The notes beneath the pieces were generated by a model. That model was not told where the DNA came from and did no database searches. It saw only the letters and a list, made by a program, of their open reading frames with translations. A DNA stretch of 64,000 bases from an uncultured Planctomycetaceae bacterium (GTDB lineage Bacteria; Planctomycetota; Planctomycetia; Pirellulales; PALSA-1355), in NCBI GenBank assembly GCA_964598535.1, contig CAZRCI010000015.1, forward strand, positions 31,098 to 95,097. Reading direction: 5' to 3'. Position 1 is the first letter of the stretch; the number at the start of each line of letters is the position of its first letter. This document shows, in pieces, positions 17,956 through 57,535 of the stretch. A program made the position numbers and the translations under genes.

Positions 17956-17982
17956 ACGCGATTTAAACCCCGCGGACGAAAC

Positions 17983-28283: not shown

Positions 28284-28488
28284 GGTGGTGTCCTAAGAGT
28301 GCGTTGCTGGAAGGAAATGCCTGTGTGGCACGCTCAGAGCGCAGCGTGGGCGTGCTGAAGTTGACTCGGAAAATCATGGTCATTCGAGCACGCCCTTCGT
28401 TCCTCAGGGCCGTGCCACCCCCGTTCGAGCACGCCCTTCGTTCCTCAGGGCCGTGCCACCCCCGGCAACACACTCTTAGGACACTACC
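28284..28488. mobile_element. MITE-like element, copy 2 (205 bp, with internal 41-bp tandem duplication)
   Basis: Same TIRs as copy 1. It is flanked by direct CGCCGCGG (28276-28283 and 28489-28496). The internal unit TTCGAGCACGCCCTTCGTTCCTCAGGGCCGTGCCACCCCCG occurs twice (28383-28423, 28424-28464). Confidence 0.75.
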
Positions 28489-28945: not shown

Positions 28946-29018
<73 letters not shown>

Positions 29019-38217: not shown

Positions 38218-39996
38218 TTGATCGTGGCTACTACGACTCCCAAGCGCGCCGCCGCGGCCCTGCAATCAGGTGCCGATATCCTTGTCGAATGCCTTGTGCG
38301 GCACGGCGTCGAGGTCGTATTCGCCTACCCTGGCGGCGCCAGTATGCCGCTTCACCAATCGCTCACGGCGTACAAAGACCGCATTCGCACGATCCTACCC
38401 CGGCATGAGCAAGGCGGCGGCTTCGCGGCCCAGGGCTATGCCCGCACCACGGGCAAGCCCGGCGTGTGCATGGCCACCAGCGGCCCGGGCGCGACGAACC
38501 TTGTCACATGCATTGCCGACGCCAAGCTCGACAGCATCCCTCTGGTCGCAATTACCGGTCAGGTGAAGACGGCCGTCATTGGTTCCGATGCGTTCCAGGA
38601 AACGCCGATCGTCGAAGTCTGCCGCGGTATTACCAAGCATCACTACTTGATTACCGACATCAATGACCTCACGCGCATCATGCGCGAGGCGTTTCATATT
38701 GCCACCACCGGCCGCCCTGGCCCGGTGTTGATCGACATTCCCAAGGACGTGCAGCAGGCTCAGATCATTCCCGACTACGACGCCCCCATGAACCTGCCGG
38801 GGTATCATGCCGAAGACCACAAGGCGCGCCCCGAGCAGATTGCCCAGGTGGCGGCCGCGATTAAGCGCTCCAAGCGTCCCGTGATTTACGCCGGTGGCGG
38901 TGTCGTGATGGGCAACGCCAGCGGCGAGCTCCGCGAACTGGCCAGCAAGACTAAGATTCCCGTCACGATGACACTGATGGGGCTGGGCGCCTTCCCGGGC
39001 GATCACCCGATGTCGCTCGATATGCTCGGCATGCATGGCAGCGTGTACTCGAACTACGCCGTCGACCAGGCCGATCTGCTGTTGGCCTTCGGCGTGCGGT
39101 TCGATGACCGCGTGACGGGCAAGGTCTCTGAATTCGCCAAACACGGCAAGATCGTACACATCGACGTCGATCCGTCGGAGCTGAATAAGAACAAAGAAGC
39201 CCACATCCCGATCATCAGTGACATCAAATACGCGCTGGGCGAACTGAACAAAATCGTCGAAGCGCCCGAGGATCTTTCGGCCTGGCACCAACAAATCGCC
39301 GAGTGGAAGCAAGCTTATCCGTTTGGTCTGGGAGAATGCACGGGCGAAACGATTACCTCGCAGTATGCGATTCACAAACTGTGGGAGCTTACCAAGGATC
39401 GCGATACGATCGTCACCGTAGGCGTGGGACAGCATCAGATGTGGGGCGCCCAGCACTACCGCCTTCGCGAACCGCGTACCTGGTGTTCGAGCTCCGGCCT
39501 GGGCACGATGGGCTTCGGTCTTCCCGCGGCCATGGGCGCCAAGGTCGCGCATCCGGAGAGCCTCGTCGTCGACATCGACGGCGACGGCAGCTTCCAGATG
39601 AATATCCAGGAGCTGGGAACCTGCTTCTGCGAGAAGATTCCCGTCAAGGTGCTGTTGCTCAACAACCAGCACCTGGGCATGGTCGTGCAGTGGGAAGATC
39701 GCTTCCACGAGGGCAATCGGGCGCATACGTACCTCGGCCCGATCGACAATCCGGAGGCCATTGGCCAGGGCTCGCCCGACAAGCCAGCCGCCCGCTTCCC
39801 CGATTTTGTTGCCATCGCCAAAGGCTATGGCGCTGGCGCCCGCTATGTGCGTGAGAAGTCACAGCTCGAGGATGCCCTGCGAGAGATGATCGAGTATCCC
39901 GGCCCGTTCGTGCTCGATGTGGAGGTTCCTTATCAGGAGCATGTGCTCCCGATGATCCCTGCCGGCATGACGGTGAAGGATCTGATTCGGGAGTAA
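38218..39996 (+). CDS. ilvB: Acetolactate synthase (acetohydroxyacid synthase) large subunit
   Basis: [35 protein letters not shown]...DGDGSFQMN thiamine-diphosphate motif. Likely GTG start at 38224 after GGAG. Confidence 0.93.
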
Positions 39997-40016
39997 CCCC
40001 CCCCTGTAGCCGCCTG

Positions 40017-40112
40017 TTGAGAATAGGCCATCGCGGTTTATTTCAACCAGCGCCAAGCGTGCGGGAGTCAAACTCCGCGCGGCTCGCAAAAATAACGACT
40101 TACGCCGTTATG
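40017..40112 (+). repeat. Three-hairpin structured repeat, copy 1 (REP-like element / candidate ncRNA or terminator module)
   Basis: TTGAGAATAGGCCATCGCGGTTTATTTCAACC...GCCAAG-[hairpin]-CGGCTCGCAAAAATAACGACTTACGCCGTTAT. It is alignable over its length to 49401-49497, with paired changes in the stems. Confidence 0.7.
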
Positions 40113-40289
40113 AAGCCGTACGTGGTGGGTCGCTGCCCCGCTGCCCAGACCGTCTGGTCGCGCGGCTTCTGCGAAATTTCTCTGGGAATTCGCCGTCCTG
40201 GCGCTACGAAATCGGGGCGAGCGAGCGCCCGTACTTCATGGAGCGTTTCCGCGGCATGGCGGCCTTCGCCCGCCAGTCTTTCCAAATTT

Positions 40290-40318
40290 TTGCCACAATG
40301 TGCGAAAATCTGGAGAAT
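40290..40318 (+). promoter_or_regulatory. Possible sigma-70-type promoter for the secreted-protein cassette
   Basis: TTGCCA, 17 nt, GAGAAT, preceded by an A/T-rich stretch. It lies about 200 nt upstream of GTG 40514. This is pattern matching only. Confidence 0.25.
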
Positions 40319-40513
40319 GTGTGTCCGTTTTTCGTGTAGCTTTCGCCTTGTAAGGTAAAGGCGACCTAAGCCAGGCTGCCCGGTCCGTTATCGAATCGCC
40401 GGTGCGTAGGCACGCTCGAGCGCGGACTGTTCAGCCAGGCAAGGGCGCGGGTCAAGTTGCCGTGCGCGGCTTTTGTAGATGTGGCTTTGTACTTCAAGAT
40501 AAGGAAACTCGCC

Positions 40514-41347
40514 GTGAAATGGCAGGTTGTGACAATAGCATTGACGTTGGTCTCGGTAGTCGCAGCGGAGGCACACGCGCAGCGGCGTGCCCCCGCTCCC
40601 CCGAGTGGTGGATTCAACCTGGCGCCGCCAAACTCCTCGGGCTCCCAAAACAACCGAGGATTCAACCTGGGGCCGAACTCGTCGGGAACTACCAATCAAG
40701 GGTTGTTCGGGACCGGCAATCCCAATCAAGGGTTGTTCGGGCCGGGGGTACAAGGACGTCCGAACTATAGGTCACCGAACATGTCGGGCACCTCTAATTT
40801 TGGCGGCTTTACGGCTCCACAGCCTCCGGCGTTCCAGTTACCCCAGTTCAACTTTCAGCCGCAACCGAACAACAATTCGTTCTGGGGCAACAACAACAGC
40901 AACAACAATAGCTGGGGCAACAGCAATTCGAACTCGTGGCGAAACAACAATCGCAACAATTGGAATGACGATTACGAGTACAATCGTCCCCAGCGCAACT
41001 ACACGCGTTCGCAACCGCAGTATTACGACAATGGCGGTTCCACGACGCAATGGTCCGCGCCACCTCCTCCGAAGGTCTACAGCCAGCGGCCGATTCGCAT
41101 CATCTGCACGGCCGACGGCTTTGCCCAGTGCAGCTATGCCTTGCTGAACGCCTCGGGAAAGACGTACGAATACACGATGACTGGCGGCGATCGGCAAAAT
41201 CTTAAGGAAACTACGGACTGGCGGATTCGCTACAACCAAGGCAACGACCGCGGCTACAAGACCTACTCGCTCAAGGGCGGCAAGGTCTATGAACTACGGC
41301 AATCGCACGACGGAACGTGGTCCTTCTATACCGTCGGCGAGTTGTAA
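40514..41347 (+). CDS. Secreted low-complexity (N/G/Q/S-rich) protein with conserved about 85-aa C-terminal domain, paralogue A
   Basis: GTG 40514 after AAGGA gives VKWQVVTIALTLVSVVAAEAHA (signal). The middle is repetitive (GFNL x2, NQGLFG x2, WGNNNSNNNSWGNSNSNSW). The C-terminus RIICTADGFAQCSYALLNASGKTYEYTMTGGDRQNLKETTDWRIRYNQGNDRGYKTYSLKGGKVYELRQSHDGTWSFYTVGEL is shared with the next gene. Confidence 0.7.
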   Translation: MKWQVVTIALTLVSVVAAEAHAQRRAPAPPSGGFNLAPPNSSGSQNNRGFNLGPNSSGTTNQGLFGTGNPNQGLFGPGVQGRPNYRSPNMSGTSNFGGFTAPQPPAFQLPQFNFQPQPNNNSFWGNNNSNNNSWGNSNSNSWRNNNRNNWNDDYEYNRPQRNYTRSQPQYYDNGGSTTQWSAPPPPKVYSQRPIRIICTADGFAQCSYALLNASGKTYEYTMTGGDRQNLKETTDWRIRYNQGNDRGYKTYSLKGGKVYELRQSHDGTWSFYTVGEL

Positions 41348-41481
41348 AGCACGCCAAGCAACGATTGCCCGTTTCAGGAACGCTATTCGTGGACGGGTGT
41401 TGCATGTGAATGGTTTTGCGTTGCAGTTTGTTCGTCCAGTCGGTTTTCATGGCTCCGTAGCTGAAGGAAGGGAGACCTCTC

Positions 41482-42123
41482 GTGAGATGGTTGGCTATGA
41501 CGCTGATGTTGGCGATCGTCTTGGCGATGGCAAGCGAAACGTATGCGGCGCCCGCGGCGCCGGAAAGGTCGGACGACGTGGCGCCGGCACCCGCGCCGGA
41601 AGCGCCGAACTCGTCTGGTTTCAATAACTCGAGTTCGTTTAGCTCGGATGCCTTTGATCCGTCCGGATCGTTTCCGTCTGCCTCGCCACCGCCGCCCGAC
41701 GTCGTTGTTCCACGGCACTCTCAGCCGCGGTCCAACAATGGCGCGAACTGGGGTAAGAATCGAGTTCGAAATAATTACGACTACGATCAGCCCCAGGACA
41801 CGTATCAGCGTCCGCAGTCGCGTTCCTATGGTCTCGGGCCGCAACCAGCGCATAGCCAGCAGCATGGCATTCGTATTATCTGCCCTTCCGACTGTGTTGA
41901 ACGCTGCCGCTACACGCTACTGAATGCGTCCGGCAAGGCGTTTGATTACGCGATTTCCGGAGGCGAATATCAGAACCTGAAGGGCCCCGCGAGCTGGCGG
42001 ATCCGTTACGACCAGGGTAACAACCGCGGCTACAGGACCTACTCGCTGAAGAATGGCGCAGTCTACGAATTGAAACAGTCTGGCGACGGTTCCTGGGTGT
42101 TCCGTACCGTCGGCGAGTTGTGA
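41482..42123 (+). CDS. Secreted protein with the same C-terminal domain, paralogue B
   Basis: GTG 41482 after GGAAGGGAG gives MRWLAMTLMLAIVLAMASETYA (signal). C-terminus: RIICPSDCVERCRYTLLNASGKAFDYAISGGEYQNLKGPASWRIRYDQGNNRGYRTYSLKNGAVYELKQSGDGSWVFRTVGEL. Confidence 0.75.
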   Translation: MRWLAMTLMLAIVLAMASETYAAPAAPERSDDVAPAPAPEAPNSSGFNNSSSFSSDAFDPSGSFPSASPPPPDVVVPRHSQPRSNNGANWGKNRVRNNYDYDQPQDTYQRPQSRSYGLGPQPAHSQQHGIRIICPSDCVERCRYTLLNASGKAFDYAISGGEYQNLKGPASWRIRYDQGNNRGYRTYSLKNGAVYELKQSGDGSWVFRTVGEL

Positions 42124-42201
42124 TGAATGCGGTGGCATCGTTGTGAGCCCGCATTCAAGTCTAGTATTTTTGATCGTCCCACGAACTTCGAGGTACCACG
42201 C

Positions 42202-42633
42202 ATGAAGCCATCGCATATCGTGTTTGCATTGCTTTTGCTCTGCAGCACGGGCAGTTTCACGGCCGCCCAGAATTATGGTCCCCGGCAGTATTACTCCGGC
42301 TGGAACAGTCACCCGTCGCACGGGTACCACTATCGCCACCTGTACTACAAGCCTCGGCCCGACTATGTCGGCTACAGGCACCACTACTGCATCTACTACC
42401 CCAGCCGCCCGAAGCACGTGTACTTCTACAATCCGTACAAGAAGTCGTACTGGGGTCGTTGCAGCATAGATCATGGCGGCAAGTACTCCTTGTTGGCCGA
42501 AGGAGATCGCCGATCGTCGCTCCAGGACATTCCTGAATCGGCCTTTCCCGAGCCGACCGCGCCACCGGCGCTTCCGGGCGTTGAAGACAGCGTTCCTTTG
42601 GATCTGCCGCCGGACGATCTGCCGGTACGTTAG
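42202..42633 (+). CDS. Small secreted Tyr/His/Pro-rich protein
   Basis: ATG 42202 gives MKPSHIVFALLLLCSTGSFTAAQ (signal), then YYSGWNSHPSHGYHYRHLYYKPRPDYVGYRHHYCIYYPSRPKHVYFYNPYKKSYWGRC. Confidence 0.6.
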   Translation: MKPSHIVFALLLLCSTGSFTAAQNYGPRQYYSGWNSHPSHGYHYRHLYYKPRPDYVGYRHHYCIYYPSRPKHVYFYNPYKKSYWGRCSIDHGGKYSLLAEGDRRSSLQDIPESAFPEPTAPPALPGVEDSVPLDLPPDDLPVR

Positions 42634-42648
42634 TCGTAGCCTATTCTG

Positions 42649-42692
42649 CTCGTGTGTTTCGGCAAACGTGCCGAAACACACGAGCGGTTTTT
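42649..42692 (+). terminator. Rho-independent terminator
   Basis: Perfect 16-bp stem CTCGTGTGTTTCGGCA / TGCCGAAACACACGAG with loop AACG, followed by CGGTTTTT. It begins 16 nt after the stop of the Tyr-rich gene. Confidence 0.75.
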
Positions 42693-42861
42693 CACCCCCT
42701 GTCTGCCCGATGTTTTACCGCTCAACTCCCACTGGATGCCGGTTTTCGGCATCTGGCGAAATAGCTGTACGGGAGAGGCCGGTCAAGAAGCGCAGAGGGG
42801 CGTTGTGTGCCACCGCAACCAGCGATTAAAAAAACGCAGCGCCGAAAGCGAGAAGATTGCC

Positions 42862-44610
42862 GTGAGAAAAGCGACCCTGATGATGCTGCGGAACGCGTTG
42901 CGACGATCGATCGTGCTGGTCGCGATCTTGCCCGGGGTGGCGGCCGCTGACGAGGAATCGCAGCAACTCGCTCGCGAGGCGACCGCGCTGCTGAAGGCTC
43001 GCTGTTACACTTGCCACGGCGAGACCTTCAATGGCAACGCCCAGTTCAATGTCCTGGATTCTCCGGCGCTCCTTGAGCACCAGTATGTCCTGCCCGACGA
43101 CGTAGAGAATTCGCCTGTCTGGCAGCGAGTAGCCGGTAACGAGATGCCGCCCGAGGATTCGGGGGTCGCGCCGTTGACGGATGATGAACGTGTTCTGTTG
43201 AAACGTTGGATCGCGGCCGGCGCCCCGCAAGTTCAACGCGAGCGGCGCAACTTCAAGGCCTACTCAACTTTGATCGATGCGGTCTATACCGACCTTGAGC
43301 GGGCCGATGCCGAGGATCGCGTGTACTTGCGTTATTTCTCCCTCGCGCATCTGAGCAACAACTACCAGGAAGTCACTGATTTCGACCTTCGGCTCTATCG
43401 GGCGGCTTTCAGCAAGGCCATCAACAGCCTGAGCGTCGTCGATGAAGTCTATGTGCCCACGTTCGTGGATGACGAGCAGACCATTTTTCGCGTGGACATT
43501 CGTCGTCTCGGGTGGACTTCGAAACAGTGGTCGCATCTGCTCGATTCCTATCCGTTCGGCATTCACTTTCACCATGCCGACGATTCGCAACTAGCCAATC
43601 GCGATCGGCAAATCGATGATTGGTCAGGGACCCCCACTTGCTGGATTCGAGCAGACTGGTTCATCAACAGCGCACTGCGCCCGCCGTTGTACGAACAACT
43701 GCTGAATATTCCCGATACGCTGGACCGTCTCGAAACGCATTTAAACGTGGATGCGGTCCGCAATTTCCGCGAGGACCGTCTGGCTCGAGCCGGCTTTGCC
43801 ACCTCGGGCGTGTCGAATGGCAATCGGCTCGTCGAGCGACACTCGTCGCGCGACGGCTACTACTGGAAGAGTTACGATTTCACCGGCAGGACCACCGACG
43901 GCAACCTCTTTCGTTTCCCGCTGGGGCCGAAGTTTGCCGAGAACGAATTCGCCAACCTCGCATTCCAGCACGATGGCGGCGAAATGATCTTCAGTCTGCC
44001 AAATGGCTTGCAAGCGTACATGCTCTGTGACGCCTCGGGCAAGCGGATCGACAAGGGGCCGATCGAGGTCGTGCGCGATACGAAGGAAATTGGCGGTACG
44101 CCAGAAGTTATTAACGGTCTTTCCTGCATCCATTGCCACCGGCACGGGATGATCGACTTTCGAGACTCGGTTCGCGACGGGGCAGGCGTCTTCGACGCGG
44201 CGCGCCGCAAAGTCCACCGTCTCTATCCGGAACCCGCGGCGATGTCTGAACTGGTCGCCAAGGATCGCGTCAAGTTCATGGCCGCCTTGAGTGAAGCAAT
44301 CGGGCCTTTCTTGCAAGTCGGAGACGATCGGACAAAACCCATCGAAGAATTTGCCGAGCCGGTCGGAGCGATCGCCAGGTTCTACCAGCGCGACCTGACC
44401 CTGGCGGCCGTCGCCTGTGAAATGGGATTTGAAAATCCCGAAGTTCTACGCGAGCTGATCCAGCACAATCGCGAACTCGTACGGCTAGGGCTGGGGCCGC
44501 TGGTTGGCGGCCAAACCATCAAACGCGCGGCTTGGGATAGTAACGCGGCCTTCGTGTCACCATTTCAAGAGGCGATGCGCGCTTTGGGCAAAGCCACGCC
44601 CGTTAACTAG
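42862..44610 (+). CDS. Secreted protein with N-terminal planctomycete cytochrome c (PSCyt1-like) domain and a second CXXCH motif
   Basis: Start at GTG 42862 or ATG 42880 (MMLRNALRRSIVLVAILPGVAAA signal). CYTCHGE near the N-terminus with NEMPP, and a second LSCIHCHRHGMIDF about 400 aa later. The rest is unrecognised. Confidence 0.7.
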   Translation: MRKATLMMLRNALRRSIVLVAILPGVAAADEESQQLAREATALLKARCYTCHGETFNGNAQFNVLDSPALLEHQYVLPDDVENSPVWQRVAGNEMPPEDSGVAPLTDDERVLLKRWIAAGAPQVQRERRNFKAYSTLIDAVYTDLERADAEDRVYLRYFSLAHLSNNYQEVTDFDLRLYRAAFSKAINSLSVVDEVYVPTFVDDEQTIFRVDIRRLGWTSKQWSHLLDSYPFGIHFHHADDSQLANRDRQIDDWSGTPTCWIRADWFINSALRPPLYEQLLNIPDTLDRLETHLNVDAVRNFREDRLARAGFATSGVSNGNRLVERHSSRDGYYWKSYDFTGRTTDGNLFRFPLGPKFAENEFANLAFQHDGGEMIFSLPNGLQAYMLCDASGKRIDKGPIEVVRDTKEIGGTPEVINGLSCIHCHRHGMIDFRDSVRDGAGVFDAARRKVHRLYPEPAAMSELVAKDRVKFMAALSEAIGPFLQVGDDRTKPIEEFAEPVGAIARFYQRDLTLAAVACEMGFENPEVLRELIQHNRELVRLGLGPLVGGQTIKRAAWDSNAAFVSPFQEAMRALGKATPVN

Positions 44611-44669
44611 TGCTCTGTCAACGCTAAATTTTGGAGTTGAAACTGATTGGCAGAGCACTAGGTATTTGA

Positions 44670-44805
44670 TTGCCGCCGAACCACTTACGTGTTCGGCGGT
44701 CGTGCTCTCGCGAAAAGTAAACCCGAAAACCAAGCATCGGAAATAATCCGTAAAGTATCGAGCCATTGCATACCGCCGAATCATTTACGTACCCGGCGGG
44801 CGTGC
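44670..44805 (+). repeat. Two copies of a 36-nt hairpin motif, 100 bp apart
   Basis: TTGCCGCCGAACCACTTACGTGTTCGGCGGTCGTGC (44670-44705) and ATACCGCCGAATCATTTACGTACCCGGCGGGCGTGC (44770-44805). Each has CCGCCG...CGGCGG arms around a (C/T)TTACGT loop. Confidence 0.6.
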
Positions 44806-44890
44806 CGTTTCAAAAACTCAATTCTCTGGCGCGGCGCAGCACGCAGGTCTGGGATGGCCGCGCTTATTTGTTGGGAGAGGCAGGATATCT

Positions 44891-45997
44891 ATGGATCGGC
44901 GGTTGAACTGGCGACATCTATTTGCGTGGGCATGCCTAGCGCTGAGCGTTATTGGGCAGATGGCCTCGGTCGAAGCCGCAACGCTCGACGAATCCGTGCA
45001 AGGAGCGGCGCAGAAGATTGCGTCTTATCTTCGCTCGAAAGGCGAGAAAAGCCTCTCGATCGGGCAATTCACCGGGCCGCCTCAACTCGGAGCCACTTCG
45101 GGCCCCAGTATTGCCCAGCTTTTCAACGATCATCTGGGCAAGCATGAGATCCTTGTCGAACGCCGTTCGAACGTCGGCCTTCAGGGAGCCTTCGTGCTGG
45201 TCGATGCCCCCGACGAAGGCGTCGCGGTCCGGCTCAATTGCAGCCTGGTCGATCGCACGGGCGAAGTGCTTACCGACTTTGTCCTCAACGCCGATACGGT
45301 CGACCGCCAAGAGGACGTGGCCACGTTGCTGGGAACAACGGCGCACCTCTTTTCTGAAGACCGCCTTGACGACCGAAATCGCGATTTCAAAAAGCGAGTG
45401 TTCTCTCCGGAACTGGCTGTCGACGGCGCGCGGGCACGAGCCGATCGACAAAGCCCTTATGCCATTGAGATCGCGGTGGAACACCGGCCCGTGCCGGTCG
45501 AGATTCATGATGGCCAAGGTTTTGTACGCCTCGGGCGAGGAGACCTCTACACGGTGCGGCTGTACAACGACAGCGACCTGGAGGCCGCCGTGCGATTGTC
45601 GATCGATGGATTGAACGTCTTTACCTTTAGTGAAATTCGCGACCCGACTTCGGGCAAGCCGAAGTATGCGGTCTATATCATTCCTCCGCATAGCCATGTC
45701 GAGCTTCGAGGCTGGCACCGAACCAATGAATCGGTCGATTCGTTTTTAGTGACCGATTACGCGGGAAGCGCCGCGGCAACGATCAAACACCAGGAAAAGA
45801 TCGGCTCGATCACGGCCATCTTCTCGGCCGCCTGGCCCAAGGGCGGGCGTCCGCCCGAAGACGAAAACCTGACGGCGCGATCCGCCTCGGGCGGCAACGC
45901 CACGGGCTTCGGGCCGCCAATCAAGCAAGTGGCGCACGAGGTCGAGCGAGAAGTCGGTCGCATGCGGGCGGCGATCACGATTCGGTATGATAAATAA
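44891..45997 (+). CDS. Secreted two-domain protein of unknown function, upstream partner of the WD40-caspase gene
   Basis: Signal WRHLFAWACLALSVIGQMASVEA. There is an N-terminal alpha/beta-looking region. The C-terminal half is beta-rich (YAIEIAVEHRPVPVEIHDGQGFVRLGRGDLYTVRLYNDSDLEAAVRLSIDGLNVF...YIIPPHSHVELRGW) and reminiscent of DUF4384-type domains that accompany caspases; that link is from memory and unverified. Confidence 0.65.
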   Translation: MDRRLNWRHLFAWACLALSVIGQMASVEAATLDESVQGAAQKIASYLRSKGEKSLSIGQFTGPPQLGATSGPSIAQLFNDHLGKHEILVERRSNVGLQGAFVLVDAPDEGVAVRLNCSLVDRTGEVLTDFVLNADTVDRQEDVATLLGTTAHLFSEDRLDDRNRDFKKRVFSPELAVDGARARADRQSPYAIEIAVEHRPVPVEIHDGQGFVRLGRGDLYTVRLYNDSDLEAAVRLSIDGLNVFTFSEIRDPTSGKPKYAVYIIPPHSHVELRGWHRTNESVDSFLVTDYAGSAAATIKHQEKIGSITAIFSAAWPKGGRPPEDENLTARSASGGNATGFGPPIKQVAHEVEREVGRMRAAITIRYDK

Positions 45998-46120
45998 GAA
46001 ATAAGAATTCGACCCCGCTGCGGTTCCAGCAATTCACTGATGTCCCGCTGGTGTTCGGCCCTTCAATGTTCGACAACGTCGCGGGCAAGGGGGGACGACG
46101 GCGGAAAGGAGAGCGAAGTT

Positions 46121-49100
46121 ATGTGCGGCAGTGCAACCATCCTGGTGGCGGCAGTTCTCGTCTTGCAACCATTGACAAGCCCGCCCGGCGATGCCACGCC
46201 AGCTACTAGCGCGGGCAAACGCGCCGACTTCGTGCGCCACGAACCAGAATTGACGCTCGATACCGGGGGGCTACTGAGCGAGGTATGCGACCTGGCTTTC
46301 AGCCCCGATGGACGATCCCTGGCGGTAGCCGGAGATAAACTCGTTCGGATCTACGATGTCGACTCCGGAGCGTTGATCACCACCTTGCGCGGCGATCGTT
46401 CCCGCTCCAGCTACGGAAGCGTCAATTCCGTCGCATATTCTCCAGACGGGAAGCATCTGCTTGTAGGGATCTTCGATTATCATCCGCGCGGCTCGATTCG
46501 GGTCTACCGCACGGACCAGTACGACCGCATCGAGCGACTCTTGCCCGGGCATACTTCGCCGTGCACTTTTCTGCGTTTCAACCGGGACGGGAAGTACCTG
46601 GCATCGTCCGATTCCGATGGCGAAATATGCATCTGGGATTGGCCAGCGCAAAAGATCATACGTCGGATCGCTCCCCGAAATCCCGATAAGCCGATCATCG
46701 ATACGCTAGAGTTCGCTGATCGAGGCCCTTCGCTGATCTCGATCGAATATGATTTGCCGCACGTTTATCGGGTTCCCGACGGTGCGGAAATCGCTCCCGG
46801 TCCGGAAATGAATCCGCTGGTCCTCGGCTGGATGTTCGACGTGATAAGCAATCGGGCCAAGTGGCCAGTCGCACTAACCAACAACAATTCGCCCCGCGTC
46901 TACGACTTCCAATTAGAAAATCGTGTTTGGGCGGCGGCTGGCGTGGGAACTTCTGGCGGGGCGAATAAATATTGGATTGGGCTGTGGAAAGCCCGCCCAA
47001 TGGCACAAGACGCCCCTCCGAATCCGGCCGCGGCGGTCTACGACAAACACAATTGGCGTGTACGCAAGATCGCGATCTCACCACGGCGAGACCTCGTCGC
47101 ATCGGGCGACGTATTCGGCGAAGTACATCTATGGGAGGCCGCGACCGGACGCCAGCAGCGCGTCATCAAGAGCTTGGGACGCTCCATCTACAATGCGGCA
47201 ATCGATCCTCAGATGACGCGAATCGCATTTGGCACCAAACCGGATCATGCAAACTGGGGATTCAACCGGTACGGACGTCCGACGCAGATCATTGATTTGC
47301 GACAACGAACCATTCGCGGGATCGACGATACGGTCGACCTCATCGACGAAACACAGCGGATCGGCGATCTCGAGGTTTCGGTGCAGCCCCCGCATGGCTC
47401 AAATCAGAGCTATCATCTGCTCAAAAATCGTGGCGGCCGTCCCGCCGGACGCTATCGCCTCCCGAGCGGCCGCCATCCCGCGGTATTCACGCTGTTATCG
47501 CAACCATCGTTGGGTGTCGCGGAACCGGTACTGTTTGGCGACGATCAAGGCCTCCTGGCCATGTGGGACACGGCCGGCGACGAGATGAGACGCTACTACC
47601 ACGGGCACAATGGAATGATCACCTCGCTCAGCCCTGCTCCTAATGGCAAGCTGTTCGTCACGGGATCGACGGATCGCACGATCCGCATTTGGAGCCTTGT
47701 CAATTATCAGCCGACGGGCATCTTTGATTTCAAATATGAGAACTCCGCGGTAATTCAAGTTCCGCCTGGTTCTTCATCAGCACGCGCCGGCGTGCGCATT
47801 GGTGATCGAATAAAGTCTTTCGACGGCCACTCGTTGCAAGATGTTTATGAGATGATGATGACCAACCACTTCGACTACCGCCCGGGCCAGGTCGCGAAAA
47901 CCGTCATGCAGCGCGGCGATAAGACATACTCCTATCAGATGGAGCTCAAGGAAGGCTTTCAGTACGTCGAGCCCTTGCTGAATATCTTTGTCAGCGACGA
48001 CGGATCTTGGATCATATGGACGCCGCAGGGCTATTACGATTGCAGCCCGGGCGCCGACCGGCTCATCGGCTGGCACGTGAATCAGGGGCCCGACAAGCCG
48101 GCCCAATACTTCCGCGCGGAGCAATTCAAGCGGCAATTGTACCGCCCCGACATTATCAACGCACTGCTCGAGTCCGGCGACTTCGACGAGGCCGTTACCG
48201 CGGCCGATCAGAAGTACCCCCAACGCGGCACGGCCGTCGACTTGACTAAGCCCGAGGCGCTTGAAAAGATCGCCCCTCCGGTGGTGACTATGGGCGCGCA
48301 CGAACAAGAGGGAGACGACCTGCGAGTTACCTTGAACGTCGAGGTGCGGTCCACCAACTCGCAAGGAATCTCGAAGGTCACCTTACTGCACAATGGCGTG
48401 CCGGCACGCACCTTCGTTCCCGGCTCTGACGAGCAACAGTTGTACAAGCTGGCGCACCGTTGCCGGTTGTTGCCCGGGCGCAACGAATTTACTTTCATCG
48501 CCGCAAATTCTCACGCCACCTCCAAGGCCGAAGACGCCCAGTTGGTGCTAACGGCGCCGGCGAGCGATCAACAAGGCCGGGTCTATCTTCTGGCAATCGG
48601 TGTTTCAAACTATCAGAACAACGGGCAGGGAATTGACAACCTTCAGTTCGCGGCCACCGATGCGCAAGCCTTTATATCAACCGTGGAAAAACACCGCGCC
48701 GGCAAACTCTACGCGGACATCCAAATCAAGGCGTTGATCAACGAAGACGCCACGCGCGAGAATGTGCTGGGGGGACTCCAGTGGTTGACCGAGAACGTGG
48801 CCGCTGGCGACTCGGTGATCATCTTTGCCGCATGTCACGGCCTCGTCGAGCGTGACAGCTTCTACTTGGCGACGCACGATGTCGACCCCGCCCGCTTGCG
48901 GTCTACCGGAGTGTCGTGGCGTGAGCTTACGGGCGTGCTTCACGAAGAACTTCCAGCTTGTCGCCGAATCGTATTCTTGGACGCGTGCCACAGCGCCGGC
49001 GTTGTCGGCACGGACACCCGCAGCCCGCTACACGATCTGGCGGCGCCCGAGCTGGGCACCGTGTTTTTCGCATCGTGTACCTTGCAGCAGAAGAGCTTCG

Positions 49101-49327
49101 AGAGCAATGAATGGGGACACGGCGCGTTTACCAAGGCGATCCTCGATACGGCCAGCGATCCGGCAGCAGATTTTGCTCCCCGCACAGGCGACGGACTGCT
49201 CAGCACGCTTGAGCTCGAGTCCGGTGTCAGCGAGAGCGTTCGGGTTCTGACACGCGACCAGCAGCACCCCGTGGTTTTCGTTCCGGCCAACGTGGGCCGC
49301 TTCAACGTCTTGGAACTGATCCGCTGA
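46121..49327 (+). CDS. Signal-peptide WD40-repeat / PDZ / caspase-like (peptidase C14) multidomain protein
   Basis: AAGGAG precedes ATG 46121 (MCGSATILVAAVLVLQPL). WD40 blades: LAFSPDGRSLAVAG, VAYSPDGKHLLVG, GKYLASSDSDGEICIWDW, VASGDVFGEVHLWE, FVTGSTDRTIRIWSL. PDZ-like region: ARAGVRIGDRIKSFDGHSL. C-terminal caspase fold with the His/Cys dyad (VIIFAACHGL and IVFLDACHSAG). Confidence 0.85.
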   Translation: MCGSATILVAAVLVLQPLTSPPGDATPATSAGKRADFVRHEPELTLDTGGLLSEVCDLAFSPDGRSLAVAGDKLVRIYDVDSGALITTLRGDRSRSSYGSVNSVAYSPDGKHLLVGIFDYHPRGSIRVYRTDQYDRIERLLPGHTSPCTFLRFNRDGKYLASSDSDGEICIWDWPAQKIIRRIAPRNPDKPIIDTLEFADRGPSLISIEYDLPHVYRVPDGAEIAPGPEMNPLVLGWMFDVISNRAKWPVALTNNNSPRVYDFQLENRVWAAAGVGTSGGANKYWIGLWKARPMAQDAPPNPAAAVYDKHNWRVRKIAISPRRDLVASGDVFGEVHLWEAATGRQQRVIKSLGRSIYNAAIDPQMTRIAFGTKPDHANWGFNRYGRPTQIIDLRQRTIRGIDDTVDLIDETQRIGDLEVSVQPPHGSNQSYHLLKNRGGRPAGRYRLPSGRHPAVFTLLSQPSLGVAEPVLFGDDQGLLAMWDTAGDEMRRYYHGHNGMITSLSPAPNGKLFVTGSTDRTIRIWSLVNYQPTGIFDFKYENSAVIQVPPGSSSARAGVRIGDRIKSFDGHSLQDVYEMMMTNHFDYRPGQVAKTVMQRGDKTYSYQMELKEGFQYVEPLLNIFVSDDGSWIIWTPQGYYDCSPGADRLIGWHVNQGPDKPAQYFRAEQFKRQLYRPDIINALLESGDFDEAVTAADQKYPQRGTAVDLTKPEALEKIAPPVVTMGAHEQEGDDLRVTLNVEVRSTNSQGISKVTLLHNGVPARTFVPGSDEQQLYKLAHRCRLLPGRNEFTFIAANSHATSKAEDAQLVLTAPASDQQGRVYLLAIGVSNYQNNGQGIDNLQFAATDAQAFISTVEKHRAGKLYADIQIKALINEDATRENVLGGLQWLTENVAAGDSVIIFAACHGLVERDSFYLATHDVDPARLRSTGVSWRELTGVLHEELPACRRIVFLDACHSAGVVGTDTRSPLHDLAAPELGTVFFASCTLQQKSFESNEWGHGAFTKAILDTASDPAADFAPRTGDGLLSTLELESGVSESVRVLTRDQQHPVVFVPANVGRFNVLELIR

Positions 49328-49400
49328 ACCATACCGAGGTCCGCGGACGAGGGGGAGTGACGTCTCTGCCTGGGGCTTGGGTGGCTGGTCTATCCGTCCG

Positions 49401-49497
49401 TTGAAATAAGCCATCGCGGCTTATTCCAACCTCTGCCAAGTACGAGGCCAGGGGCTTCGTACGGCTCACAAAATAGCGACTTATGCCCGCTATTTTG
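49401..49497 (+). repeat. Three-hairpin structured repeat, copy 2
   Basis: TTGAAATAAGCCATCGCGGCTTATTCCAACC...GCCAAG-GTACGAGGCCAGGGGCTTCGTAC-GGCTCACAAAATAGCGACTTATGCCCGCTATTTT. Hairpins: AATAAGCC/GGCTTATT, GTACGAGGCC/GGCTTCGTAC, AAAATAGCG/CGCTATTTT. It lies between convergent genes. Confidence 0.7.
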
Positions 49498-49533
49498 CGA
49501 TTACGCAGTCCGTCGAATACTTCAACCGGTCGG

Positions 49534-50406
49534 CTATCCTTCAAAAGGCTCCATATGCACGAGCACGTCTCGCACCGAGGGGACCGCTGCCCGGATAGCG
49601 CCTTTCACCTTGCCACTCATTATGTGCGCATCGTGAAGCGAAAGCACGGGATCGGCTTGCACGTGCAAATCGACCATGAGTTCAGTGCCGAAGCGCCGCA
49701 CGCGCAACTTCTCCGTCGCCAGAACTCCCTCAACACTTCGAGCCGCGCCATCGATCTGCGCTAGGATCGGCGGCTCGGGCATCCGATCCATCAAGTCGTT
49801 TACCGCGACCCGCAAGAATCGACCGCCATTGATTGCGATAATCCCTGCGGCGGCAATCGCGGCCCAATCGTCGGCCGCCGCCCACCGCTCACCGCCCCAA
49901 ATGGCCAACGCGATACCGATGAACGCGGCGGCCGAAGTAACCGCATCGCTGCGGTGATGCCAGGCATCGGCCATCACAACGTTGCTGTCCGCCTCGTGTC
50001 CGACGGCCAGCACTTTGCGAAACAACACTTCTTTGATCGCGATGACCCCTGCTAGCACATAGAGCGTAAAGGTCGCCGGCAGGTGGTGCGGGGTCATCAA
50101 CTCGCGGATCGCCGCGATCACGATGCCGATCGCGGCGCCCAGCAACATCAAAGCGACGGCGGCCGTGGCCAACGCTTCGGCCTTTCCATGTCCATAGGGA
50201 TGGGATTCGTCGGCCGGCTGTGCCGAGACATGCAAACCGCCCCACACGATCAGCGAAGCAAAGATGTCGGTCGACGATTCGACCGCATCGGCGACCAGAG
50301 CATAAGAATGCCCCACGATTCCGGTAACCAGCTTGATCACCACCAGCGCAGCATTGACCACAAGCCCCCACTGCGCCGCTCGAATGCCAGAGGTTAGTCG
50401 TTTCAC
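49534..50406 (-). CDS. Cation diffusion facilitator (CDF) family metal efflux transporter
   Basis: Six TM helices, SYALVADAVESSTDIFASL and HHRSDAVTS metal-site motifs, and a C-terminal cytoplasmic domain. Confidence 0.9.
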   Translation of the reverse strand: MKRLTSGIRAAQWGLVVNAALVVIKLVTGIVGHSYALVADAVESSTDIFASLIVWGGLHVSAQPADESHPYGHGKAEALATAAVALMLLGAAIGIVIAAIRELMTPHHLPATFTLYVLAGVIAIKEVLFRKVLAVGHEADSNVVMADAWHHRSDAVTSAAAFIGIALAIWGGERWAAADDWAAIAAAGIIAINGGRFLRVAVNDLMDRMPEPPILAQIDGAARSVEGVLATEKLRVRRFGTELMVDLHVQADPVLSLHDAHIMSGKVKGAIRAAVPSVRDVLVHMEPFEG

Positions 50407-50821: not shown

Positions 50822-52393
50822 GTGAATAAACAAATCCCCAACTACTTGCGGCTAGTGACCGATACTAGCTTGCAGCCCGTCGCCAAACGCGACGAAGACC
50901 TGGTCGTCCTCGAACGAGCGTGCCTGGCGTTCGTGCAAGCGACCGGCTGGCAACTCGATTTTGTTCGTGACGACAACACCGCCGCACCAACGAACCTGAT
51001 GTGGTCCGCCCCGGTTGATCCGGGCGTTGGAGCCTCTCCCGGACACATCAGGCTCTTTACGAGTGCCGAACATTCGGTTGCAATTCCGCTTGAGCAGGCC
51101 ACGCCGCTCGCACAATCGATCGGCGATCTGTGGGGCGAGTTGCTCGCCACGCGACATGCCGTTCGGCAACGCGAGGCCGAACTAGCCACGGGCGTTCCGC
51201 TCGTTCTGCGCGACGACGATGAACGAGCCCCCAGTCTTGCGCAGCGTTTCGAGTCGGTGCTGAAAGGCGGCGCCGAAGCCATCGGCTGCCAGGCTGCCGC
51301 GCTGTATCTTCTTGATGCGGCGACAACCGAACTCAAAATGCGTTCTAGTTGGGGGCTGCCGCGCCGCCGCCTGCTTGAACCGGCACGTCCGCTCCGGCCC
51401 GCGCTGGCCGATCTCGAGGCTCTCCTGGGGCATGCCGTGGTAATGAACGAACCTGCCCTTTTCGACTATTGGAAAGTCCCCGAAACGGGATTCCGTTCTG
51501 CGGTTTGCGTGCCCGTATCGAGCCCCTCCATGCCGCTCGGAACCCTCTGGATTTACAGCGATCGGGTTCGCGACTTTAGCGACGCCGAAACAAACATCGC
51601 CGAAGTGGTCGCAGGTCGCTTGGCTTCGGAACTCGAGCGTGAGACGCTTGTCGAAGAGGCCATCGCCACGCGTGACAATTCACGCCAAGCGCGGCGTGAA
51701 GCGCGCGAACAGACATGTCCGCTGCCATCCGTGCCGCCCACGATCGAAGGTTGGGAAATCGCCGCTCAGGCCGTGGGCAGCAGTTGTCCCGCCGGCATGT
51801 TTTACGATTGGCTAAGTGCCGCGGACGGCAGTCTGACCGTGGTGGCTGGCGACGCGGGAGTGGCCGGCGAAAAAGGGGCCTTGGCGGCGAACTTGTTGCG
51901 TGGCGCGGTGCGCGGCATCTGCACGCAGCGCCCCGCGGCAGGGGAGCTTGTCTCGCGACTGAACGAGGTACTATGGTCGTGTAGCCCTGGCGAGACGGTC
52001 GCAGGACTGCTGTGTGCCGTCATCGCCCCTGGCCTCGGCGTCCTCGAGTTATGCACCGCGGGACCGATGCGCGTGCTGGCCATTAGCGATGCACATCGCG
52101 TGCTTGAGGGCCCTTCGCCCCCGCTTGGCAGACAAAGCGATCTCCGGCTTGCCTCCCATCATGCGCCATTGCTCGTCGCGGAGCTCGTCGTAGGATATTC
52201 CACGTCGATCATTGATGCCGAGGGCGATGAATCGCTGCTTGCGGCGTTTGACCAACGCCTGGCATTGGCGCTGGAGCCCTATGCCGATCGTCCGCTTGCC
52301 CACCTGGTGCAAATCGCAACAGCCGTCATCACCGAAGTTTGCTCACCCGGCAATCGCGAAGGGATTGTGATTTTCGCCCGTCGCCGCCGGTAA
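50822..52393 (+). CDS. GAF-domain PP2C/SpoIIE-family protein phosphatase
   Basis: The central region looks like GAF. The C-terminal part MFYDWLSAADGSLTVVAGDAGVAGEKGALAANLLRGAVR is typical of the SpoIIE/PP2C core. GTG start. Confidence 0.75.
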   Translation: MNKQIPNYLRLVTDTSLQPVAKRDEDLVVLERACLAFVQATGWQLDFVRDDNTAAPTNLMWSAPVDPGVGASPGHIRLFTSAEHSVAIPLEQATPLAQSIGDLWGELLATRHAVRQREAELATGVPLVLRDDDERAPSLAQRFESVLKGGAEAIGCQAAALYLLDAATTELKMRSSWGLPRRRLLEPARPLRPALADLEALLGHAVVMNEPALFDYWKVPETGFRSAVCVPVSSPSMPLGTLWIYSDRVRDFSDAETNIAEVVAGRLASELERETLVEEAIATRDNSRQARREAREQTCPLPSVPPTIEGWEIAAQAVGSSCPAGMFYDWLSAADGSLTVVAGDAGVAGEKGALAANLLRGAVRGICTQRPAAGELVSRLNEVLWSCSPGETVAGLLCAVIAPGLGVLELCTAGPMRVLAISDAHRVLEGPSPPLGRQSDLRLASHHAPLLVAELVVGYSTSIIDAEGDESLLAAFDQRLALALEPYADRPLAHLVQIATAVITEVCSPGNREGIVIFARRRR

Positions 52394-52548: not shown

Positions 52549-52623
<75 letters not shown>

Positions 52624-52632
<9 letters not shown>

Positions 52633-52805
52633 CTGACCTAAGAGGACGCCCGGGATCGGCAAAAGCGCTTTCGCCTAAGTTCGGCGCTCGATCCCGCGCC
52701 AACTCATGCGCCGTCGTCCGGAGCGTGTCAACTCCGGACGGCGGCTTTTAAAAATTTCCGCCCTGATTCAAGAGGACGCCCGGGATCGGCAAAAGCGCTT
52801 TCGCC
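52624..52805 (+). repeat. Duplicated att-like direct repeat (tRNA-Leu 3' end plus 36-bp identical core)
   Basis: AAGAGGACGCCCGGGATCGGCAAAAGCGCTTTCGCC is identical at 52640-52675 and 52770-52805. Upstream of each copy lies TTTCCCGCACTGACCT (the real tRNA 3' end) versus the degenerate TTTCCGCCCTGATTC. A further 21-bp piece, CGCTTTCGCCTAAGTTCGGCG (52666-52686), recurs at 53110-53130. Confidence 0.7.
52710..52749 (+). terminator. Rho-independent terminator between the two att-like repeats
   Basis: 14-bp stem GCCGTCGTCCGGAG / CTCCGGACGGCGGC (one G-T pair), loop CGTGTCAA, then TTTTAAAAATTT. Confidence 0.6.
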
Positions 52806-56077: not shown

Positions 56078-56145
56078 AGTCGTGTAGCACAACGGTAGTG
56101 CGCCGGGGATATCCGGCGGTGCGGGTTCGATTCCCGTCACGACTC
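56078..56145 (+). ncRNA. tRNA-like sequence with aberrant anticodon arm (degenerate or unusual element-borne tRNA)
   Basis: Acceptor AGTCGTG/CACGACT, D arm GCAC-AACGGTA-GTGC and T arm GCGGG-TTCGATT-CCCGT are all canonical. The anticodon arm GCCGG-GGATAT-CCGGC has only a 6-nt loop, the variable region is 3 nt, and the total length is 68 nt. Confidence 0.45.
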
Positions 56146-56203: not shown

Positions 56204-57535
56204 ATGCCACAACCACAAAAACAACCTGATCCGCAGGCCCTAAAGCGGCTGCTGACTGAGTATGTCACGATCAGTGGGCGTAAGCTCGGAGCGGCCTCGC
56301 GCGAAACGCTGGAATGGTTGGTGCGCGAAGCGGGCTTTCGGCGCACGTTCGTGCGATTAAGTGGAAACGAGTTCCGGATCGATCCGAGCAGCATGACAAC
56401 CAGACTGAGGCGACTCGAGGCTGATGGTGCGCTCGTGATCTACAGGATACATGCCGGTCGGCTGGGAGGCGCAGAAGTTCGCGTGCGAGATCTGTTCGCC
56501 ATCCATGCCTATCGGCAGGCTGAGCGCGATCGCGACAAGTGGCTGCTGCAGTTCAGCGCTGACGACGACGAACCGCCAGCCACGATTACTCTCTCCGGCG
56601 TTCGAAATTCCGGCGCGTTGCGCGAAAACTCCGGCGCTTCGGCGGCAAGAGTCCGGAATTTGTTTGGCGACCAACCCCTCGACAGCGAGGAATCTCCGGA
56701 CTTTTCCAGGCAAGAGTCCGGAATTTCCTCGCGTAAATTCCGGCGCGTTGCGCGAAAACTCCGGCGCGTTGGCGGCAAGAGTCCGGAATTTCCTCGCGTA
56801 AATTCCGGCGCGTTGCGCGAAAACTCCGGCGCTTCAGCGGCAAGAGTCCGGAATTTCTCCGAGACCGGAGCGCCCCCAGAACTCGAAGCCAAGCTGCGCG
56901 AAACCCTGACTGCCAACCAGCTCGAAAGCTGGCTGCTTCCCAGTCGCTTCGTCGTCACAGAGGCCAACACACAAGTCTTTCTGTTTTCAGCTTTTGCGAT
57001 CGATCTGGTACGTAAAAACATCGGTCGCCAGATGCACGCCGCAACGCGTGACGCCGGCCTGCCGCCGCTCGAATTTTGCGTCGATGGGACGCTCCGGGCA
57101 TGGTTTGAAAACGACCAAAATTCCGGCGCTTCGGCGGCAAGAGTCCGGAATTTCCCGGTTAATGAATTAATATTTAATCAAACGCGCGCGGCGCGCCGCG
57201 GCGACTTCGGAGAACATCCGCTGCTACGGGCCGCGGAGTCGCTGTACGACGCGGTGGGCCTGGACTGGCCATTCCGCTGGTTCGCCATTCAGGCCATCAC
57301 ACTGCTCGACGCAGGCGCAATCCAGCGTGCCGACATCGAGCAGCGGATCGCGGATCCCGCGCGCCGCGCCAAGCTGCTCCCGCACGGGATCCGCGAACTG
57401 GCTGGCGAGCACTGGCGCGAGCTGCCGGCATTCCGCCGCCATCTGTCCGATCACTACGGCATTGCGTGGCAAGAGCACTTCGCCGCCAATCGCGCGCCGC
57501 GAGCCAATCACCCACGGAAGGGCAGCACTCGATGA
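56204..57535 (+). CDS. Replication-initiator-like protein containing the iteron array (lambda O-like arrangement)
   Basis: 443-aa ORF. The N-terminus looks like a winged helix (TLEWLVREAGFRRTFVRLSGNEF...LEADGALVIYRI). The middle is encoded by DNA repeats. The stop overlaps the next ATG (ATGA). The functional call is inferred from the repeat architecture, not from homology. Confidence 0.5.
   Translation: MPQPQKQPDPQALKRLLTEYVTISGRKLGAASRETLEWLVREAGFRRTFVRLSGNEFRIDPSSMTTRLRRLEADGALVIYRIHAGRLGGAEVRVRDLFAIHAYRQAERDRDKWLLQFSADDDEPPATITLSGVRNSGALRENSGASAARVRNLFGDQPLDSEESPDFSRQESGISSRKFRRVARKLRRVGGKSPEFPRVNSGALRENSGASAARVRNFSETGAPPELEAKLRETLTANQLESWLLPSRFVVTEANTQVFLFSAFAIDLVRKNIGRQMHAATRDAGLPPLEFCVDGTLRAWFENDQNSGASAARVRNFPVNELIFNQTRAARRGDFGEHPLLRAAESLYDAVGLDWPFRWFAIQAITLLDAGAIQRADIEQRIADPARRAKLLPHGIRELAGEHWRELPAFRRHLSDHYGIAWQEHFAANRAPRANHPRKGSTR
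56605..57155 (+). repeat. Iteron-like array: three full 57-bp units plus two partial units
   Basis: The unit AAATTCCGGCGCGTTGCGCGAAAACTCCGGCGCTTCGGCGGCAAGAGTCCGGAATTT occurs at 56605-56661, 56735-56791 and 56800-56856. There is a half unit at 56709-56734 and a unit with a 21-bp internal deletion at about 57117-57155. The unit ends are inverted (AAATTCCGG ... CCGGAATTT). Confidence 0.8.
57159..57182 (+). other. AT-rich tract next to the iterons (candidate DNA-unwinding element)
   Basis: TTAATGAATTAATATTTAATCAAA contains only 2 G/C in 24 nt, inside a very GC-rich gene and 4 nt after the last iteron. Confidence 0.55.

Follow-up and report, generated by a model that had tools for sequence, protein, structure and literature searches.

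Probable MITE insertions at both edges of a conserved gene block for a predicted secreted caspase-type module in an uncultured Pirellulales bacterium

The window analyzed here, a stretch of 64,000 nt (64 kb) from contig CAZRCI010000015.1 (positions 31,098 to 95,097) of an uncultured Planctomycetaceae bacterium within the Pirellulales, contains a block of six genes (g1 to g6) behind the acetolactate synthase gene ilvB. A similar hairpin-rich element lies at each edge of the block: copy A next to ilvB, and copy B between g6 and a gene for a CDF cation-efflux transporter. An initial annotation had interpreted the two elements as direct repeats bracketing a cassette that was inserted behind ilvB as a unit, and the six genes as a candidate undescribed extracytoplasmic system. 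The question raised by the locus is whether these repeats in fact delimit a mobile cassette. Both repeats exist, but they do not mark the limits of a cassette, and a mobile bracketed cassette is not supported. Copies A and B are probably two separate insertions of a transposable element of the miniature inverted-repeat type (MITE), and the block between them a conserved, predicted secreted caspase-type module.

The repeat family and its target sites

Two like elements were indeed present where the initial annotation had placed them. Window positions 40011-40112 and 49395-49500, both on the plus strand, are 80-83% identical, and a 22-nt core, GCCATCGCGGNTTATTNCAACC, has two exact occurrences in 64 kb against an expectation of 0.01. 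The three hairpins that had been described fold in each copy, with folding z-scores of -2.5 for copy A and about -6 to -7 (-6.2) for copy B, and the middle hairpin has diverged in sequence between the copies while its pairing was kept. No third copy was detected in the window using a covariance model built from the A and B pair with filters off, and Rfam, queried at the gathering score and also at E <= 10, contained no match to the element.

The unit is longer than the ~96 nt initially reported. In the extended family alignment the conserved unit stops sharply at both ends, with a body of 140-150 nt (modal lengths 149 and 150) plus a 4-nt duplication on each side. The terminal inverted repeats (TIRs) of the family are CAGCCYGTTGAA / TTCAACRGGCTG, and both were present in 58 copies when up to three mismatches were allowed. 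The general layout is 5' CTAG-CAGCCCGTTGAA-P1-P2-P3-P4-GCAGCCCGTTGAA-loop-TTCAACGGGCTG-CTAG 3', in which P1 to P4 are hairpins. The element has no coding capacity; the open reading frames (ORFs) that cross it are artefacts, which resemble each other only through the common element.

Copy A (40006..40140, plus strand, 3' limit approximate; covariance model 111 bits) starts 9 nt past the ilvB stop codon rather than 20 nt as first stated. It carries GTAG at 40006-40009 in place of the 4-bp duplication, followed by the 5' terminal repeat CCGCCTGTTGAG at 40010-40021 and hairpins P1-P3. It aligns with a complete copy over 40007-40140 only, and its 3' terminal hairpin and repeat are gone. Copy B (49390..49537, plus strand; 117.5 bits) is complete, with the duplication CTAT at 49390-49393 and 49534-49537, the 5' repeat CCGTCCGTTGAA at 49394-49405, hairpins P1-P3, and a 3' terminal hairpin at 49506-49533; hairpin P4, present in most family copies, is absent from it. 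Copy B begins 62 nt past the g6 stop codon, not 73 nt, and finishes on the stop codon of the CDF gene. The TAG stop of this gene, which is on the minus strand, is the CTA of the right-hand duplication. In the closest relative (locus L211), the CDF gene ends with TGA at the same codon and there is no MITE, whereas in the window the TAG was supplied by the duplication. The CDF gene has GAA CCx TTT GAA as its last codons (window 49540-49551, minus strand; L211 17757-17775); these resemble TTCAACGGGCTG, and this likeness to the terminal repeat adjoining the insertion point could be due to chance or to a target preference.

The element is not particular to this block. A strict search pattern with a 24-position core matched 83 metagenome contigs, and the flanks of these contigs and of two Pirellulales metagenome-assembled genomes (MAGs) carrying the element were unrelated. 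A covariance-model screen of the window, the two MAGs, and 80 of the 83 matched contigs yielded 89 matches; essentially all 80 contigs were confirmed, and several carried two copies. In total, the family counted about 88 copies at 86 loci, these being the window, the two MAGs, and the 83 contigs. An earlier loose pattern (20 specified bases, two gaps) mostly returned chance matches in GC-rich genomes, and among the matches listed in that genome scan only the two Pirellulales MAGs (L093 and L096) were genuine. One of the two MAGs harbored a pair of copies, separated by 770 nt, on either side of an unrelated gene for a cyclic-nucleotide-binding (cNMP-binding) protein. Clustering of all flanking ORFs revealed no recurrent neighbour family, the large clusters being ORFs that run through the element itself, which excludes a cis-regulator of a particular gene.

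The 4-mers immediately outside the terminal repeats were identical as direct repeats in 23 of the 58 copies; 13 of these pairs were non-palindromic and none was inverted. In the shuffle control for identical 4-mers, the mean was 3.6 and the maximum 10 in 2000 shuffles, and not one of the 2000 reached 13. The non-palindromic pairs included CTAA/CTAA, CTAT/CTAT, ATAG/ATAG, ATAA/ATAA, TTAG/TTAG, and CTTG/CTTG. The flanking 4-mers are therefore a direct target duplication, not a prolongation of the inverted repeat. The target is 4 bp of the form NTAN with the consensus CTAG, and CTAG or CTAA were the commonest. The stop codon of the neighbouring gene fell within the 4-bp duplication at 13 of 34 flanks formed by a gene 3' end. 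Because the preferred targets (CTAG, CTAA, CTAT, and TTAG) hold stop codons on one or both strands, copies tend towards gene ends.

The family thus comprises short non-coding units with TIRs and a fixed-length duplication, present as dispersed copies, with an autonomous relative and presence/absence polymorphism. The element is a MITE, occurring as ordinary dispersed copies of a family that is apparently undescribed in Pirellulales. No match to it was found in Rfam or in literature searches, which were made by keyword and not by sequence; keyword searches of the literature on planctomycete MITEs and on PSCyt1, a domain of g4, likewise returned nothing specific.

The parent insertion sequence and the hairpin region

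A 1.67-kb element on contig L171 (622-2293) has the same ends as the MITE and is the probable autonomous parent. The MITE corresponds to positions 5-23 plus 1532-1672 of this insertion sequence (IS), that is, to its first ~19 nt and last 141 nt, with 79% identity. The part that the MITE lacks encodes a 421-aa DDE transposase, which matched the NCBIfam IS4-family model NF033592 with 201.8 bits (cut-off 115) and Pfam DDE_Tnp_1 with 50 bits (cut-off 23). Judged from this alignment, the MITE is an L171-type IS minus the ~1.5 kb that holds the transposase. The deletion is bounded by two 38-nt internal inverted repeats of the IS, and hairpin P1 is its scar. The MITE is presumably mobilised in trans by the transposase of the parent IS. 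A tblastn search of the window plus all collected loci for further transposases of this type matched L171 alone.

The class of the parent is less clear. Duplications of the IS4 family are typically 8-13 bp in ISfinder descriptions, and a 4-bp duplication is typical of IS5 and IS701. The parent scores as IS4 yet its MITEs duplicate 4 bp, so the subgroup can be assigned only tentatively from the sequence. An IS701-like IS beside the MITE of L144 was considered as an alternative parent and rejected, given that its terminal repeats (GTATTACTYCGTTA) differ from those of the MITE. This IS (L144 104-1512) is flanked by CTAG and is inserted exactly at the CTAG end of the MITE; the ends of the MITE are themselves targets for another CTAG-seeking IS.

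The hairpins of the MITE derive from a hairpin-rich region of ~140 nt, which the parent IS has upstream of its transposase gene, on the strand opposite to that folded in the initial annotation. In the family alignment, non-Watson-Crick pairs were A.C in 148 cases and G.U in 34, and the A.C pairs would read as G.U wobbles on the transposase-sense strand. Covariation was evident: 90% of the cells were paired compared with 43% when partners were slid, and 21 pairs had changed on both sides compared with 10.7 in shuffles, although these counts are not phylogenetically independent. An alternative reading takes the element chiefly as a functional structured RNA (a small RNA, a 3'-untranslated-region (3'-UTR) stabiliser or terminator, or a cis-regulator) serving the ilvB and g6 transcripts. 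The strong covariation, the folding z-score of copy B, and the fact that no Rfam family explains the element all speak for this reading. On the other hand, no upstream or downstream gene family is conserved, the neighbours vary in orientation (14/14 upstream and 6/20 downstream), and the single downstream family in fixed orientation that marks a riboswitch or cis-leader was not found. The element has terminal repeats, duplicates its target, and has a parent that bears a transposase. Copy B showed no intrinsic-terminator signature, and the wobble counts favour the transposase-sense strand, a better match to an IS leader than to a host 3' UTR. A host RNA function as the main role of the element is accordingly quite unlikely. 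The covariation of the hairpins appears to be best explained by selection on the leader of the parent IS, which the MITE copies would have inherited.

The gene module and the interval between ilvB and the CDF gene

All six genes of the block are on the plus strand, and by inspection their products begin with hydrophobic, signal-peptide-like N-termini, as initially annotated. The largest gene, g6 (46121..49327, alternative start 46040), encodes a predicted secreted protein of the orthocaspase type, in which Pfam matches to WD40, PDZ_2/PDZ_6, and Peptidase_C14 bore out the annotation as a WD40-PDZ-caspase, the PDZ domain being located between the propeller and the protease. The protease domain scored 39.1 bits against PF00656 (cut-off 21.4), and by eye only, the motifs AACHG and LDACHSAG stand at the positions of (S)GHG and D(A/S)CHSG in the family. 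The caspase domain returned nothing from a sequence search of the PDB. Signal peptides are clear in the g6 homologues of L208 and L209.

The gene g5 (44891..45997) encodes the two-domain protein described earlier, with an N-terminal alpha/beta domain and a C-terminal beta-sandwich. It had 69 homologues, of which those that are named come from planctomycete assemblies, most being unnamed. A caspase gene adjoins g5 in the window and in L206, L207, L208, L209, L214, and L215, and is 2 kb away in L210. The product of g4 (42877..44610) is a predicted secreted di-haem protein that consists of a PSCyt1 domain (31 bits, cut-off 22) and a ~450-aa domain with a second CXXCH motif, for which Pfam has no model. 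Both motifs (C43/C46/H47 and C417/C420/H421) are invariant across 61 homologues, and the family has more than 800 matches. Structure prediction and Foldseek, which the initial annotation had proposed, were applied to g4 and g5: the AlphaFold2 (AF2) models had pLDDT (predicted local distance difference test) values of 92.7 and 88.5, respectively, and neither matched a PDB structure at E < 1e-3. The g5 model showed weak likenesses at the domain level only, LptE/PelC-like in the N-terminal domain and to generic beta-sandwiches in the C-terminal domain. Two homologues (P0296 and P0299) carry a Ser/Thr kinase domain and then a membrane helix ahead of the complete g4 sequence, and in another (P0281) an FHA domain and a membrane helix precede it; placed beyond the membrane helix in these proteins, g4 behaves as an extracytoplasmic input domain. 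Many stand-alone g4 homologues in JGI are labelled 'serine/threonine-protein kinase', and their precomputed Pfam domains include no kinase.

The first two genes, g1 (40514..41347) and g2 (41482..42123), are tandem paralogues as described (46% identity over the C-terminal region; BLASTP E = 6e-44). Their predicted secreted products are built from a signal peptide, a disordered stretch rich in N/Q/S/Y (a low-complexity region rich in N/Q/G/S in g1), and a small C-terminal domain with two Cys, which is conserved over ~85 aa in g1. The family is rare, accounting for 50 of 1.84 billion cluster representatives, and g1 homologues adjoin g5 or g6 in L205, L207, L214, and L215. The small protein encoded by g3 (42202..42633) is rich in Tyr and His, as had been noted, and has a homologue upstream of g4 in L205. 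As initially stated, no function could be assigned to the block beyond domain labels: NCBIfam gave nothing above threshold for its proteins, PADLOC found no system, no solved structure was matched, and no informative Pfam match was obtained for g1, g2, g3, and g5 even at E <= 10.

Homologous loci were found in eight other places, in other planctomycete genomes. In L207, L214, and L215, g4, g5, and g6 are followed by one or two g1/g2-like genes, and the remaining five loci hold partial sets. L205 contains g3-like, g4, g5, and g1-like genes; L208 and L209 contain g5 and g6, with extra caspase paralogues upstream in L209; and L210 contains g5 and the distant caspase gene. In L206, g4 and g5 are followed by a small ORF, a caspase, a g5 paralogue, a caspase-Sel1 gene, and a caspase-FGE-sulfatase gene. 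Furthermore, at least 17 pairs of g4 and g5 matches shared an identical longest-contig size, and one pair had adjacent locus tags. The expansion of the locus by a g5 paralogue and several caspase fusions (L206 14754-15860 and L209 2687-9515) suggests a diversifying family of caspase/g5 pairs. In none of the eight loci (L205-L210, L214, and L215) is ilvB beside the module, and no MITE was detected in L205-L213 using the covariance model, L214 and L215 being outside this search. Two of the conditions that the initial annotation had named as refuting its reading thus apply: the element is a generic dispersed repeat, and relatives have these gene families side by side, with no repeat in the loci searched and with ilvB elsewhere. 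The module is real, conserved, flexible in gene order, and independent of the repeats. As far as gene content indicates, g4, g5, and g6 are its core, the small proteins of the g1/g2 and g3 types are accessory, and the arrangement is operon-like.

The suggestion that the block is an undescribed extracytoplasmic system, possibly centred on a protease, holds with regard to its coherent and conserved caspase-centred families, and its function can be proposed tentatively. The module may be a periplasmic proteolytic sensing or processing system. In this scheme, g6 would pick secreted partners through its WD40 propeller and PDZ domain and then cleave them, g5 would be the constant partner, as either substrate or regulator, and the disordered products of g1-g3 would be candidate substrates. 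The g4 protein would contribute a redox or ligand input based on haem; its domain also forms the outer part of membrane Ser/Thr kinases. It is possible, but rather less than probable, that the module represents an undescribed extracytoplasmic caspase pathway of Planctomycetota, in which a secreted WD40-PDZ-orthocaspase cleaves secreted partners of its own (g5 and the disordered g1-g3 proteins) under a di-haem g4 sensor whose fold was not seen in the PDB. If true, this would be a periplasmic counterpart of cytoplasmic protease-effector systems.

The same gene content could be viewed as an anti-phage or cell-death conflict system, in which the WD40-caspase senses an invader and cleaves g5 to free a toxic effector. 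Caspase-like proteases fused to beta-transducin (WD40) or FGE sensors and accompanied by cleavage-activated effectors have been described (PMC12642450; PMC7159879), and these published systems are the closest parallel in logic. In addition, most loci have a caspase gene beside g5, further paralogues of the caspase-FGE-sulfatase and caspase-Sel1 types occur in L206 and L209, a TIR-kinase gene is near the locus in L210, the corresponding interval in L211 encodes a TPR-CHAT protein, and the g6 caspase weakly matches the NCBIfam model 'caspase, EACC1-associated type'. This match, however, scored 76.5 against a cut-off of 140, and PADLOC recognized neither a system nor an effector. Moreover, no STAND or other NTPase (nucleoside triphosphatase) is present, a haem-protein partner is not a feature of the described systems, and these are cytoplasmic, whereas all components of the block have signal peptides and are therefore predicted to be extracytoplasmic. 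A role in defence is unlikely on this evidence.

How the block came to lie behind ilvB can be judged from relatives. The ilvB gene (38218..39996, plus strand), which forms the left flank and was confirmed by the Pfam domains TPP_enzyme N, M, and C, is 88-93% identical to ilvB of L211, L212, and L213. The conserved right flank is the CDF transporter gene (49534..50406, minus strand; Pfam Cation_efflux and ZT_dimer), 88% identical to that of L211, and is followed by a gene for a GAF/SpoIIE (PP2C-type) phosphatase (50822..52393, plus strand) common to the window, L211, and L212. In L211 (ilvB 93% identical), the order is DUF1501, ilvB, TPR-CHAT (1849 aa), CDF, and SpoIIE/GAF. In L212, ilvB is followed directly by SpoIIE/GAF and then by an integrase and IS21, and in L213 by transaldolase (TAL). 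No element follows ilvB in L211 or L212. The interval behind ilvB is a variable slot, and the block in the window is one of several alternative contents. Since the slot differs among close relatives, the block is an insertion or replacement relative to them, and this part of the initial claim stands; the repeats as borders of the inserted unit do not. The single 1849-aa TPR-CHAT protein fills L211 12157-17706, equivalent to window 40000-49530, and both alternative cargos thus encode caspase-fold proteases. GC content within the block is 57-60%, 3-4 points lower than outside (61-63%). The nearest homologues of g4 and g5 share no more than 57-63% identity and thus give no sign of a recent donor.

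A composite transposon flanked by MITEs, moved whole as a 9.5-kb unit behind ilvB by the cognate transposase, would account for several of these observations. The copies have the same orientation and lie precisely where the difference from L211 begins and ends, the block has a slightly lower GC content, and the parent transposase is of the IS4 family, which includes the composite-forming IS10 and IS50. Against it, copy B has its own intact CTAT/CTAT duplication and the outer 4-mers (GTAG and CTAT) differ, leaving no duplication around the unit; the pair is consequently not the two ends of one composite arrival. Copy A has lost its 3' end, the module occurs at eight other loci with no MITE at the six that were searched (L205-L210), and MITE pairs also bracket unrelated genes in L093 and L124. 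A composite origin is very unlikely, and copy A, decayed, and copy B, intact, are probably independent insertions. An integron-like or other site-specific cassette with the elements as recombination sites is practically negligible as an explanation: the geometry of direct repeats around a same-strand block is all that would suggest it, whereas no integrase or recombinase is encoded among the neighbouring genes, the copies are dispersed singly, and the element, unlike attC with its single imperfect hairpin, is a multi-hairpin unit with TIRs and a 4-bp duplication. The possibility that a cassette was inserted into one MITE was also considered and rejected, as the 62 nt before copy B are unlike the missing 3' half of copy A.

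The interpretation as two separate MITE insertions around a conserved module is weakened by several points. Copies A and B are located exactly at both edges of the segment that differs from L211; this position is taken as a consequence of insertion at gene ends, a preference that was demonstrated, but an element of coincidence remains, and the elements may have contributed to rearrangement of the interval. Copies in the source genome were counted within the 64-kb window only (n = 2). The IS4-family assignment rests on a single autonomous copy (L171), and the 4-bp duplication is shorter than usual for that family. The internal hairpins covary, unlike the neutral decay expected of MITE copies. 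With regard to the module, L205 has g3, g4, g5, and a g1-like gene with no caspase nearby, and co-transcription, secretion, haem attachment, and proteolysis are predicted properties. A non-coding spacer (40141..40513) lies between copy A and g1, and contains a weak sigma-70-like sequence at 40290-40318 that is a consensus match only.

The window contains other repeats. A second, unrelated MITE-like pair is located at 17981-18146 and 28282-28488, 10.3 kb apart and 98% identical over 140 nt, with the terminal inverted repeats GGTGGTGTCCTAAGAGTGTGTTGC / GGCAACACA...TTAGGACACTACC; the copy at 28282-28488 has an internal 41-nt duplication, and a tRNA gene (28946-29018) is just downstream. A tandem array of a 65-nt unit (3.9 copies, 56605-56857, and a partial copy at 57097-57153) lies downstream of a tRNA gene (56078-56145); it was rejected as a CRISPR (clustered regularly interspaced short palindromic repeats) array because its units are nearly identical. 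In addition, a 51-nt direct repeat (52625-52675 and 52755-52805, 90% identical), the first copy of which overlaps the 3' end of a tRNA gene (52549-52632), looks like the duplication of a tRNA end that is left by an integrating element.

Comparison with known systems

The MITE family resembles the Correia/NEMIS elements of Neisseria and other IS-derived MITEs, which are likewise short, non-coding, and multi-copy, with TIRs and a duplication of fixed length. As in IS-derived MITEs, the copies have a longer transposase-bearing relative, are intergenic and often at gene ends, and are rich in hairpins. The family differs from known MITEs in that its parent scores as IS4 yet duplicates 4 bp (NTAN), its hairpins show compensatory changes between lineages, and the neighbouring stop codon is often rebuilt from the duplication. 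Two copies in the same orientation around a multi-gene block recall the IS4 composites Tn5 and Tn10. In such transposons, however, the ends have no private duplications and one duplication surrounds the unit, whereas here copy B has its own, the outer 4-mers differ, and the cargo occurs elsewhere without the ends. In these genomes, repeats found in pairs around gene blocks can therefore be MITEs that landed on stop codons, and such brackets need to be tested for TIRs and private duplications before they are read as cassette borders. The analysis defines an apparently undescribed Pirellulales MITE family together with its parent IS, the hairpin region of which is under structural constraint.

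The gene module is an undescribed combination that is built from known domain types, and it delimits, around a predicted secreted protease of the caspase type, five conserved protein families; two of these families have confident models and no relatives among solved structures. Fusions of WD40 and Peptidase_C14 are known in bacteria (PMC5756287, PMC7475262). Like the orthocaspases and metacaspase-like C14 proteases with WD40, g6 has a C14 domain above the cut-off, the His and Cys motifs, and WD40 repeats, but it adds a signal peptide and a PDZ domain and is linked to a di-haem protein and the g5 family. To our knowledge, no member with the particular combination of g6 has been studied. The protease-effector modules (EACC1, Pepco, MBL, and hydrolase effectors) likewise have a caspase with a repeat sensor beside a small conserved partner, and by analogy the logic of cleaving a neighbour may apply here; in contrast to those modules, the components in the window are predicted to be secreted, g5 is outside the known effector families, and the partners include haem and low-complexity proteins. 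Finally, g4 begins with the PSCyt1 haem c domain that is typical of abundant planctomycete secreted proteins, similar to the PSCyt1-PSCyt2-PSD1 (DUF1549-DUF1553) proteins, whereas the rest of g4 is a different domain of ~450 aa, and homologues carry it in kinase and FHA fusions. The reuse of the g4 domain on Ser/Thr kinases offers a starting point for the study of extracytoplasmic caspases and haem sensing in Planctomycetota.

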